A DNA stretch of 32,000 nucleotides. It comes from Candidatus Heimdallarchaeota archaeon B3_Heim. GTDB taxonomy: Archaea; Asgardarchaeota; Heimdallarchaeia; Hodarchaeales; Hodarchaeaceae. The notes beneath the pieces are model-generated. The model did no database searches, had not been told where the DNA came from, and was given only the letters and a program-made list of their open reading frames with translations. Of the stretch, positions 760 through 2,703 are shown one piece after another (the stretch's first letter is position 1; each line of letters opens with the position of its first letter). Location of the stretch: assembly GCA_003144275.1 (NCBI GenBank), contig NJBF01000010.1, forward strand, positions 60,001-92,000. The letters run 5' to 3'. The translations under genes and the position numbers were made by a program.

Positions 760-2424
760 ATGTCTTTAGTTTACATGAAAGTATTGGAGAAAGATCCAAA
801 GACATACGATTGGGAGTTTAAAAAGAGATTCCCTGAAGTTGAACATATTTATGAGTTGATAAAGACCAGAATTGGGGAACAGGGACGTGTTCTTGAAATT
901 GGGAGTGGAACAGGACGATTAGCGATTGATATAGCTAAACAGGGGTTAGAAGTAACTGCAATTGATGTTTCTGAAGAGATGATCAACCATGCAAGAATAA
1001 CTGCGGGAAAAGAGAATATAGACTTGGAGTTCATCATTGGTAACTTCCTTGCTCTTCCTATATTCGAACAACTTCAAGAATCTGGATCATTTGATTTCAT
1101 TATCTCCACATTTGCTTTATCTGAAATGTCTCCTCTTCAACAAACATTATTCCTGAAACAAATATCCCTTTTACTAAAACAGGAAGGAATTTGCTTTCTG
1201 GTTACCGATACCGCCCCTAGTTCAGGAATATCCAAGATAGGTTTTTCGATTAGAAATTTTATTCGTGCGCAAGTTTCGATTTTTAAGGACATCCCCTCCA
1301 CAAACCCTGTAAAGAAAGTAGAGACTAAAATCGATCCCTTTTTTGAAAGTACACTTCAATTTCAAAAGAAAACAATCAAGTTATTCGAAATCACTAAGAA
1401 AGTTGAAGACTCAGCCATATCTGAAGAGCTTCCATCCGTTAAAGCTATTTTAGGATCATATTCACAATTAAAAACTGCTTATTGTATCGTCAATGGAATA
1501 TTGACAAGAAAGAGCGTACCTCCTGGCTTATATCGGATTGGGAATCCACGAAGAAATTCACCAGTTCTGGTAACTGCAAATTACTATTGGACGGTAGATT
1601 CTGTATTTAAACTTCTTCACAAGGAGACTATTGATTGCTTTCTATTAATAGTAGATTCAAATGGAATAAATGTGTGGTGTGCTGCAGGGGGAGGCCATTT
1701 TACACATACACAAATATTAGACGCAATTAGGTTATTTGATGTCAAAGAAATGATTGATCATTCTACCATAATATTACCTCAATTATCAGCAACAGGAGTA
1801 GATCGAAAGGAATTGTCTAAAGCAGGTTGGAAACCAGTTTTTGGCCCCGTAGATATCAAAAATGTTAATACATTTCTAGAATCATTCACAAAAAAATCTA
1901 AAACAGCGATGGTTGAGTTTAACTTAGCATTTAGAACTCTAATGGGAATACAACATGCGTTCTTTATTAGTTGTGTTCTTTTCCTCCCTTTGTTACTGAT
2001 TCTTGGTATTTTAGCGGCTATAGAGATTCCATTGACATCTTTTTGGTTTTCTGTTGTATTTCAGCTGTTTATCCTCGGTTGGATTATTAATATGCTATTT
2101 ATTTGGGGTTACCCAATTTTTAACTTCACATCTTCTTTCTTTAAAAAGGGCCTTTCAGTAGCAATAATCAACTCAATTGTGGTTTTATTTTATCTGATAA
2201 CTCAGATAAAGATCATATCTTTGTATAGCTTAATTTTCTGGGTCGCTTTGGTTACTGTAGTGAGTTTATTCATAATTCTAGATCTTGCTGGGAACACCCC
2301 TTTTACTAATCACTTAGATGTTGAAAGCGATCTGACTCTGTTCATGGTACCGGCATTGATTCTTTGCCTTATTGCGATATTTATTCCGTTGGTTAGTTCA
2401 GATATTAAACACTTATTATTTTGA
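760..2424 (+). CDS. hgcA: Fusion: N-terminal class I SAM-dependent methyltransferase + HgcA-like corrinoid-binding domain + C-terminal multi-TM domain
   Basis: aa 44-52 VLEIGSGTG (SAM motif I), TAIDVS, FDFIISTFALSE. aa 253 onward VPPGLYRIGNP..NSPVLVTANY, GINVWCAAGGGHF (nt 1669-1692) and IILPQLSATGVD are HgcA/CdhD-type corrinoid-domain motifs. C-terminal hydrophobic helices include P....F.KKG and GNTPFT...VE, resembling HgcA. Symbol means hgcA-like; function not proven. Confidence 0.8.
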   Translation: MSLVYMKVLEKDPKTYDWEFKKRFPEVEHIYELIKTRIGEQGRVLEIGSGTGRLAIDIAKQGLEVTAIDVSEEMINHARITAGKENIDLEFIIGNFLALPIFEQLQESGSFDFIISTFALSEMSPLQQTLFLKQISLLLKQEGICFLVTDTAPSSGISKIGFSIRNFIRAQVSIFKDIPSTNPVKKVETKIDPFFESTLQFQKKTIKLFEITKKVEDSAISEELPSVKAILGSYSQLKTAYCIVNGILTRKSVPPGLYRIGNPRRNSPVLVTANYYWTVDSVFKLLHKETIDCFLLIVDSNGINVWCAAGGGHFTHTQILDAIRLFDVKEMIDHSTIILPQLSATGVDRKELSKAGWKPVFGPVDIKNVNTFLESFTKKSKTAMVEFNLAFRTLMGIQHAFFISCVLFLPLLLILGILAAIEIPLTSFWFSVVFQLFILGWIINMLFIWGYPIFNFTSSFFKKGLSVAIINSIVVLFYLITQIKIISLYSLIFWVALVTVVSLFIILDLAGNTPFTNHLDVESDLTLFMVPALILCLIAIFIPLVSSDIKHLLF

Positions 2425-2427
2425 AAT

Positions 2428-2703
2428 GTGATAGAGATGGTAGCTGTTATATTTATTGAGAGGTGTAATGGATGTGCTTGGTGTCTAGATGTCTGTCCAC
2501 ATCAAATAATAATTTTAACTAATGATAAAAAGGCTGAGATCGTTAATGAAGAACGATGTATAGAATGTGGGGCATGTGCATTACAATGTCCAAGAGATGC
2601 AATACTAGCTCATCCACTTGGATGTGGTTGTGTTTCTAGTGTGGTACGGAAGAAGGTTCGTAAATTGCTACATCTACCTGAGAAGTCCAAGCAGTGCTGT
2701 TAG
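2428..2703 (+). CDS. hgcB: HgcB-like 2x[4Fe-4S] ferredoxin
   Basis: CNGCAWCLDVCP and CIECGACALQCP (two CX2CX2CX3C), then GCGC and terminal CC; starts 3 bp after the hgcA-like stop. Confidence 0.85.
   Translation: MIEMVAVIFIERCNGCAWCLDVCPHQIIILTNDKKAEIVNEERCIECGACALQCPRDAILAHPLGCGCVSSVVRKKVRKLLHLPEKSKQCC

Follow-up and report, generated by a model that had tools for sequence, protein, structure and literature searches.

Contig NJBF01000010.1 of Candidatus Heimdallarchaeota archaeon B3_Heim (assembly GCA_003144275.1) was analysed over a stretch of 32,000 nt (positions 60,001 to 92,000 of the forward strand), hereafter called the window. The window carries two adjacent genes, the first encoding an S-adenosylmethionine (SAM)-dependent methyltransferase (MTase) fused to an HgcA-like corrinoid protein and the second encoding an HgcB-like ferredoxin. 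We read these two genes, with a probability of about 0.6, as a three-module methyl relay of the CpaM/HgcAB-like family, in which a methyl group would pass from SAM through the CpaM domain to the Co(I) state of an HgcB-reduced corrinoid and then to an acceptor, which may be a thiophilic metal(loid). NCBIfam already names the family in two curated models, NF043040 for CpaM ("corrinoid protein-associated methyltransferase") and NF043039 for HgcAB-like proteins, and the copy in the window is a rearranged, divergent CpaM::HgcA plus HgcB variant.

As shown in Table 1, the fusion protein consists of a CpaM-type domain, a linker, an HgcA-type corrinoid-binding domain and a membrane domain. Its translation contains the motifs VLEIGSGTG (motif I of the MTase), PGLY.IGNP..SPVLVTANY and NVWCAAG. 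Using Pfam, Methyltransf_25 matched residues 44-143 (E 1.9e-17) and CdhD (PF03599) matched residues 252-372 (E 3.3e-16). NCBIfam scores were compared with the curated cut-offs of 180 bits for NF043040, 285 for NF043039, 275 for NF040863 (HgcA), 99 for NF040864 (HgcB) and 306 for NF003195 (a model of the CFeSP type; CFeSP, corrinoid iron-sulfur protein). The CpaM model matched residues 2-191 (model positions 1-191 of 216) with 121.5 bits, and its likeness to the N-domain is specific because the second-best MTase family reached 45 bits only. The HgcAB-like model matched residues 252-517 (model positions 15-280 of 350) with 214.3 bits. The HgcA model matched residues 252-546 with 171 bits (E 3.5e-50), as against 506 bits for a named HgcA protein, and NF003195 gave 83.5 bits. 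The PGAP label of the protein is "methyltransferase domain-containing protein" only. The AlphaFold2 (AF2) model of the whole chain had a mean predicted local distance difference test score (pLDDT) of 89.1 and a predicted template modelling score (pTM) of 0.84. In the linker, pLDDT was 72-79 in blocks 211-230 and 241-250, its residues being modelled and partly conserved.

The N-domain carries the N-terminal motif M.K.LE..P..YD, the motif I residues G48, G50 and G52, the acidic motif II residue D69 and, after strand beta5, the helical insert with T.P that is specific to the CpaM family. It aligned end to end with stand-alone CpaM proteins scoring above the cut-off. When 52 fusion proteins were aligned, the M, E and P of the N-terminal motif were invariant, together with G48, G50, G52 and D69. 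Foldseek matched the domain to small class I SAM-MTases. Judged by these sequence features, the N-domain is a divergent CpaM. An initial annotation, made from the letters of the window, had noted a likeness of this N-terminus to corrinoid-protein-associated methyltransferases, and the score of 121.5 bits against 45 for the next family bears this out; its domain calls and all the motifs it quoted for both genes were likewise confirmed by translation, Pfam and NCBIfam. Stand-alone CpaM proteins form at least 187 clusters at E <= 1e-20 across many bacterial phyla, some of them named CpaM by NCBI. Literature searches for "CpaM" or "corrinoid protein-associated methyltransferase" returned unrelated acronyms only and the phrase was not found. 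The paper of Haft and Gwadz on HgcA selenoproteins (10.1101/2022.07.06.499078) does not mention CpaM, and a search for hgcA together with "methyltransferase domain" found no description of an MTase-HgcA fusion.

The corrinoid-binding domain is homologous to the CFeSP structures PDB 2h9a and 4djd (E 1e-8 to 1e-10). Residues G256, Y258, P263, T272, N274 and P340-G346 are invariant in the same 52 fusions, and so are N304, W306 and C307 of the cap helix. Since residues of both the SAM site and the cap helix do not vary, both halves of the protein are under selection. Cys307 is the predicted Co ligand. The cap helix, NVWCAAGGGHFT, reads NVWCAAGG, with Gly311 in place of the canonical Lys; that of stand-alone HgcA is NVWCAAGKGTF. 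Column 311 discriminated best: 88% of canonical HgcA rows have Lys there, whereas 95% of those in the CpaM-associated clade have Gly. The high-stringency cap-helix motif for hgcA is N[VI]WC[AS][AGS]GK (PMC10087281), and the protein of the window fails it because position 311 is Gly. The NVWCAAGGGHFT signature, with its GGGHFT end, is common to most MTase-fused proteins and to most HgcAB-like ferredoxin fusions, two of which (P0064 and P0076) carry it exactly. A second clade of the archaeal phylum has the cap helix NVWCAARGNDFG. The C-terminal helices of the AF2 model span residues 389-420, 426-454, 460-482, 488-512 and 518-545, in agreement with hydropathy, and the best Foldseek match of the C-terminal 300 residues was the published HgcAB model 9a0b_A.

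The ferredoxin gene follows directly: the GTG start of its open reading frame (ORF) lies 3 nt past the fusion stop, and the gene begins 3-12 nt downstream depending on the start used. The in-frame ATG is the likelier start, since it matches the conserved MVAVIF start of close relatives. The Pfam matches were Fer4 and dicluster ferredoxin families. The protein has two CX2CX2CX3CP motifs, CIECGAC, GCGC, an extra Cys ahead of the tail and a C-terminal CC; it scored 66 bits with NF040864, and it matched the ferredoxin part of NF043039 (positions 299-349) as a separate ORF with 52.4 bits. Of 30 loci of the phylum, 28 have a small ferredoxin directly 3' of the fusion, and one of the remaining two stops at a contig edge. 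These ferredoxins carry C[IT]EC[GS]AC, GCGC (replaced by GCRC in two loci) and, at the C-terminus, one Cys or a pair. Many of those in the second clade with cap helix NVWCAARGNDFG (loci L020-L039) add an N-terminal SCC or SCS to GCGC and the C-terminal Cys cluster.

We predicted the complex of the fusion protein with SAM and the ferredoxin. The interface score ipSAE was 0.73, compared with 0.00 for the best of three controls. Among solved complexes 58 of 80 attained a value of 0.73, as against 2 of 110 mismatched pairs; these frequencies apply only roughly here, where own alignments and a riding ligand were used. The docking runs had a contact agreement of at least 69% and a partner pLDDT of at least 74. 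Predicted ferredoxin contacts were residues 310, 341-350, 361-364 and 378-385 and the transmembrane (TM) loops 457-458 and 514-527. They thus touch the loop P340-G346, which is invariant, as well as TM loops on the cytosolic side, and form an interface like that of the published HgcAB model (PMC7305189). The prediction supports ferredoxin docking at the corrinoid domain and at these TM loops.

The fusion cannot be put down to an error of assembly or to a frameshift. In an independent marine-sediment run of 2016, one contig of 4,019 nt spans positions 700-2750 of the window with 159 substitutions and no gap. X1, X2 and X4 yielded short pieces of contigs only and were left out of any claim on habitat or strain. 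A scan of the phylum gave a match in 288 of 400 genomes, and about 130 of the best 150 matches extend over 500 or more of the 554 residues, in one open frame with no stops. In a protein search, the Methyltransf plus CdhD architecture occurred in dozens of 90%-identity clusters, the sources of which are named as metagenome-assembled genomes of Promethearchaeota, Hodarchaeales, Heimdall-, Odin-, Thor- and Hermodarchaeota and Anaerolineae; triple fusions of 591-638 aa, with the ferredoxin added, were among the matches. A representative library of 1.84 billion proteins held the full-length architecture in about 30 distinct 50%-identity clusters. The fusion is the usual form in the archaeal phylum and is common in Chloroflexi, and a view of the architecture as rare is not supported. 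The initial annotation had named an artefact, absent from reads and relatives, among the findings that would undo its reading; the independent gapless contig and the recurrence of the single frame in well over 100 genomes dispose of this.

Both parts do occur as adjacent same-frame genes one stop apart, the arrangement from which an artefact could arise. In the window's genus, loci L148 (genome G064) and L150 (G074) hold paralogues in which cpaM and the hgcA-like gene are separate, adjacent and in the same frame with one stop between, and L149 (G159), from a different family, is split in the same way. In some relatives the stop and the new start fall in the linker region, and some genomes, for example G070 and G074, have two paralogous systems. 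A joining of such neighbours by error is practically negligible as an explanation, given the gapless independent contig, the stop-free matches, the spread over the 50%-identity clusters and a linker that is itself partly conserved. Selenocysteine at the cap helix was also considered for the in-frame TGA, TAA or TAG codons of six phylum homologues and was ruled out; the three loci inspected (L148-L150) are split genes and not selenocysteine forms, because their stops sit at the CpaM/HgcA boundary.

The same partnership is found in bacteria. Nine loci with CpaM and HgcAB-like genes were compared (L040, L041, L052, L053, L054 and L144-L147, the last four picked only for their long contigs), and in every one examined CpaM is upstream of, or fused to, the HgcAB-like gene. 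Stand-alone CpaM genes (258-270 bits) lie directly upstream of HgcAB-like genes (332-379 bits), the stop of the first mostly overlapping the start of the second; L144 has one intervening DJ-1 gene. A scan of 80 loci with a tight CpaM alignment returned four true CpaM, the generic motif I pattern swamping the rest. Bacterial MTase-HgcA fusions are followed by a small ferredoxin, in the order seen in the window, and the triple fusion P0048 scored above both the CpaM and the HgcAB-like cut-offs. With M for the methyltransferase, A for the corrinoid protein and B for the ferredoxin, all boundary arrangements were seen: three genes, M+AB, MA+B and MAB. Three canonical hgcA-hgcB control loci (L151-L153) had no methyltransferase within 5 kb.

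The phylogenetic position of the corrinoid protein was assessed with a mixture-model tree of 63 rows and 308 columns, rooted on CdhE from the same phylum. CdhE was separated from all else at 100/100; a grouping of the corrinoid domain with CdhD/AcsC, which the initial annotation had named as a refutation of its reading, is not seen. Canonical HgcA formed a single clade (100/97) with the window's protein outside it. The CpaM-fused and HgcAB-like forms were the sister group of canonical HgcA with moderate support (85/82), and the clade of the window lay inside this group (99/93). A quick tree of the corrinoid domain alone agreed in the CdhE split, the canonical clade (95) and the sister group of CpaM-fused and HgcAB-like forms, except that it joined the second clade of the phylum weakly to canonical HgcA. 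By its place in these trees the protein of the window is not a canonical HgcA; it is a member of the sister HgcAB-like clade. No other PF03599 protein and no CdhD/E was found in the window's genome. Lin et al. 2023 placed Asgard sequences in the fused-HgcAB clade, concordant with our main tree, and dropped the first 327 alignment columns as poorly aligned (PMC10083202), a trimming that would hide the N-terminal MTase domain of the Asgard proteins.

The bacterial homologues often lie near genes related to metals. An ArsR/SmtB regulator is present in seven bacterial CpaM loci, and six loci share the cassette arsR, a gene for a protein of about 140 aa, a gene for a membrane protein of about 155-173 aa, cpaM and hgcAB-like. 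The membrane protein of L052 and L041, the only two compared, has GCCGSPMLP inside a helix, and both small proteins of the cassette are 43-48% identical between L052 and L041. They gave no Pfam or NCBIfam match and may handle a thiophilic metal. The protein of about 140 aa has an N-terminal hydrophobic segment; the pair lies at L041:3469-4361 and L052:699-1582 and has equivalents in L144-L147. Near bacterial CpaM loci we also found MerC, a CDF exporter, Csp copper-storage proteins (two loci), MerR with HMA and a P-type ATPase, and a Cd/Pb/Hg-type MerR regulator. In P. mercurii, too, the canonical hgcAB has an ArsR-like regulator ahead of it, one responsive to arsenic and S-adenosylhomocysteine (10.1101/2022.10.17.512643).

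One bacterial subclade has a radical SAM selenoprotein with a CUAEP tail, paralogous to ArsL, directly upstream of cpaM/hgcAB-like (Table 1). As a part of the module of the window this gene was rejected, being absent from the window's genome (best score 51 bits against a cut-off of 500). The P0060 contig has a 465-aa Radical_SAM gene in the same position, as assigned by Pfam; beside it, divergently, lie MerB, a CsoR-type repressor and a pyridine-nucleotide disulfide oxidoreductase.

Taken as a methyl relay, the system would work as follows. HgcB would bring the corrinoid, with its Cys ligand, to the Co(I) state. The CpaM domain of the fusion would then move the methyl group of SAM onto Co(I) to give methyl-Co(III), from which the methyl group would leave at the membrane face for the acceptor. 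When purified HgcAB is reduced at low potential, it makes methyl-cob(III)alamin from SAM, and the conserved Cys provides Co-thiolate ligation (PMC11588087); the statement in the initial annotation that SAM is the methyl donor of HgcAB thus agrees with the published biochemistry. Because at least seven B12-binding proteins are encoded in the window's genome, corrinoid would be available; CobS was not found in this genome, which is 94% complete, and this may mean corrinoid salvage. As acceptor, a thiophilic metal(loid) is favoured over mercury specifically, on the indirect evidence of the conserved paired Cys residues in HgcB and of the metal genes near the bacterial homologues. The earlier caveat that the acceptor may not be Hg is supported to this extent.

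Several points weigh against this relay. Canonical HgcAB takes SAM without a class I MTase (PMC11588087), so that a dedicated loader is not chemically required, and no biochemistry was found in the literature for any CpaM/HgcAB-like member. The two proteins of the window score under the cut-off for all four NCBIfam models, NF043040, NF043039, NF040863 and NF040864. The support of 85/82 that unites all CpaM-linked forms is not strong, and the quick tree, from a shorter alignment, joins the second Asgard clade weakly (82) to canonical HgcA. The Asgard loci are without conserved metal genes, only the fusion and the ferredoxin being conserved, and the proposal of a metal(loid) acceptor therefore rests on the bacterial homologues and the Cys motifs. 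The initial annotation had taken the fusion as a Rosetta-stone pointer to the methyl-loading partner of HgcA. The logic holds, as the exchange among three genes, M+AB, MA+B and MAB indicates; the target is not supported, for the fusion belongs to the sister clade, the three canonical control loci lack an MTase nearby and canonical HgcAB needs no added MTase in vitro, so that the fusion points to the loader of the HgcAB-like clade and not to that of canonical HgcA.

It might be supposed that the module is a genuine mercury methylase, that is, an HgcAB orthologue with an extra MTase domain in an organism that makes methylmercury. The intact Asn, Trp and Cys of the cap helix, the five TM helices, an HgcB with CIECGAC, GCGC and a terminal CC, the extended match to NF040863 and the HgcAB model as best fold match all agree with this. 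Yet the score of 171 bits is far from 275, Gly311 breaks the high-stringency motif (PMC10087281), the protein lies outside the canonical clade, and none of the tested organisms with the related fused HgcAB produced methylmercury (Podar 2015 and Gilmour 2018, as cited in PMC10087281 and PMC10083202). We regard this explanation as improbable: the system is probably not a mercury methylase, and the label of an "hgcAB-like mercury methylation module" is not supported, given the Gly for Lys exchange and the failure of the tested fused-HgcAB organisms to make methylmercury (PMC10087281).

A different role for the MTase is suggested by MetH, in which SAM and a low-potential electron donor reductively reactivate the enzyme by methylating protein-bound cob(I)/(II)alamin within one chain. 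MetH has an unrelated SAM-domain fold and a Rossmann-type B12-binding domain, is soluble and uses SAM for repair only, and so the likeness is one of mechanism only. On this precedent, the CpaM domain would be a repair module that, with HgcB, re-methylates corrinoid oxidised to Co(II), the routine donor being a methylated pterin or substrate. HgcB is always present, and Co(II) possibly lies off the catalytic cycle and has to be activated reductively (PMC11588087). We nevertheless hold a repair role to be unlikely, since no second methyltransferase of the MtrH, MeTr or MtaA type is conserved beside the module in the 30 phylum loci and the bacterial cassettes, the genome is without CdhD/E, and the one-to-one linkage with CpaM in every arrangement fits a core step better. 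Alternatively, the corrinoid and ferredoxin parts could carry out reductive chemistry other than methyl transfer, for example halomethane dehalogenation, with the MTase acting separately on the product or on a thiol. A 2026 preprint reports dechlorination of CCl4 by heterologously expressed HgcAB (10.64898/2026.04.26.720869), and the MTase fold resembles generic small-molecule MTases. This division of labour seems quite improbable. CpaM and the corrinoid protein have repeatedly fused and split independently, and CpaM has a family-specific motif at its N-terminus as well as an insert; both observations point to partners that act on each other, as two proteins or within one chain. In the sister family, moreover, methyl transfer from SAM to Co is demonstrated. 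The SAM-to-corrinoid relay remains our preferred reading.

Among known systems, the closest is the pair of CpaM and HgcAB-like proteins (the "fused HgcAB" of Podar 2015, Gilmour 2018 and Lin 2023, e.g. in Pyrococcus furiosus), which has the same three modules and shares with the window the NVWCAAGGGHFT signature, the side of the tree and the N-terminal motif and insert of CpaM. In that pair CpaM is separate and the ferredoxin is fused C-terminally, whereas in the window CpaM is fused and the ferredoxin separate. The window's copy is also divergent, falling under both cut-offs, and has no adjacent ArsR/TetR regulator or small accessory genes. Canonical HgcA/HgcB (P. mercurii ND132) shares with the window the PF03599 domain, the Cys cap helix, the 5-TM domain, a neighbouring dicluster ferredoxin that has a Cys pair at its C-terminus, a similar predicted interface and SAM as ultimate methyl source. 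It differs in having no MTase domain or neighbour, a Lys after the cap-helix Gly, its own clade and direct use of SAM (PMC11588087), and canonical HgcA often has an N-terminal CC/CU extension (10.1101/2022.07.06.499078). The large subunit of CFeSP (AcsC/CdhE), of the Wood-Ljungdahl pathway, has a homologous corrinoid-binding domain and a methyl-Co(III) intermediate in common with the system proposed here; it differs by a [4Fe-4S] domain at the N-terminus and a TIM barrel, lacks both a Cys ligand and a TM domain, and takes its methyl group from methyl-H4folate via MeTr.

Table 1. Coordinates of the module, its parts and other features (positions refer to the window unless a locus is given)
Feature	Position	Strand	Basis or remark
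DNA-3-methyladenine glycosylase I (Tag)	66-647	+	PF03352, E 8e-83; directly upstream of the fusion
TATA-like A/T-rich element caattttaaaacc	719..731	+	read from sequence only
Fusion gene for CpaM-like SAM-MTase, HgcA-like corrinoid-binding and 5-TM domains	760..2424	+	554 aa; ORF listing and translation
CpaM-type class I SAM-MTase domain, aa 1-212	760..1395	+	NF043040 match
Inter-domain linker, aa 213-250	1396..1509	+	AF2 confidence lower
HgcA-type corrinoid-binding domain, aa 251-385	1510..1914	+	PF03599 match
Cap helix NVWCAAGGGHFT	1669..1704	+	translation; Cys307 codon at 1678-1680
Membrane domain, five predicted TM helices, aa ~389-545	1915..2421	+	hydropathy peaks and AF2
HgcB-like 2x[4Fe-4S] ferredoxin	2428..2703	+	91 aa from GTG 2428; 88 aa from ATG 2437
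178-aa protein with NKxD-like GNKQD box	2779-3315	+	no Pfam match; convergent with 3351-4490
379-aa protein	3351-4490	-	Pfam, borderline LANC_like match, 23.8 bits
Glyoxalase-fold protein	4477-5025		beside DNA methylase
577-aa DNA methylase	5204-6937	-	N6_N4_Mtase and second MTase-like region
Very long ORF, 1,865 aa	11475-17072	+	
Divergent pair, glycine-cleavage T protein (GCV_T) / serine hydroxymethyltransferase	17076-19751		
ArsL-like CUAEP radical SAM gene	L054:3644-5020; L133:4508-5905		L054 end WYC-TGA-AEP, the selenoprotein form

The A/T-rich element caattttaaaacc lies about 30-40 nt 5' of the fusion ATG and is a possible archaeal promoter. A functional link of the module to Tag and to the downstream GTPase-like and 379-aa genes was considered and rejected, as synteny extends to the four closest relatives only. 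For the same reason we define the module as two genes, and the adjacency of Tag to a methylating system is probably a coincidence. The GCV_T and serine hydroxymethyltransferase genes belong to folate C1 metabolism and lie some 15 kb away from the module.

Apart from HgcAB, no enzyme is known to make methylmercury. The native role of HgcAB and the route of its corrinoid methylation have been long-standing questions, and SAM was identified as the donor only in 2024. A sister clade that is always encoded with, or fused to, a SAM MTase gives independent genomic support for the SAM-to-cobalt route in the family, and the fusion with its ferredoxin is a self-contained two-gene test system for this route. 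Counts of "hgcA-like" genes in marine-sediment metagenomes include the Asgard forms, and recognising the CpaM-linked forms guards against over-counting mercury methylators. This significance is tempered by the fact that the family is common and named in NCBIfam and that any assignment of its substrate is tentative. More tentatively, and as a possibility that we hold to be doubtful, the relay may methylate thiophilic metal(loid)s (As, Sb, Te, Bi or Hg) in dependence on SAM and corrinoid, an obligatory SAM-MTase partner being ancestral to the whole HgcA family and canonical HgcAB having lost CpaM later and then used SAM directly. If so, the two genes would be the simplest system for the loading of a protein-bound corrinoid by a class I MTase, and the family would represent a second, widespread biological route of metal(loid) methylation in anoxic sediments.

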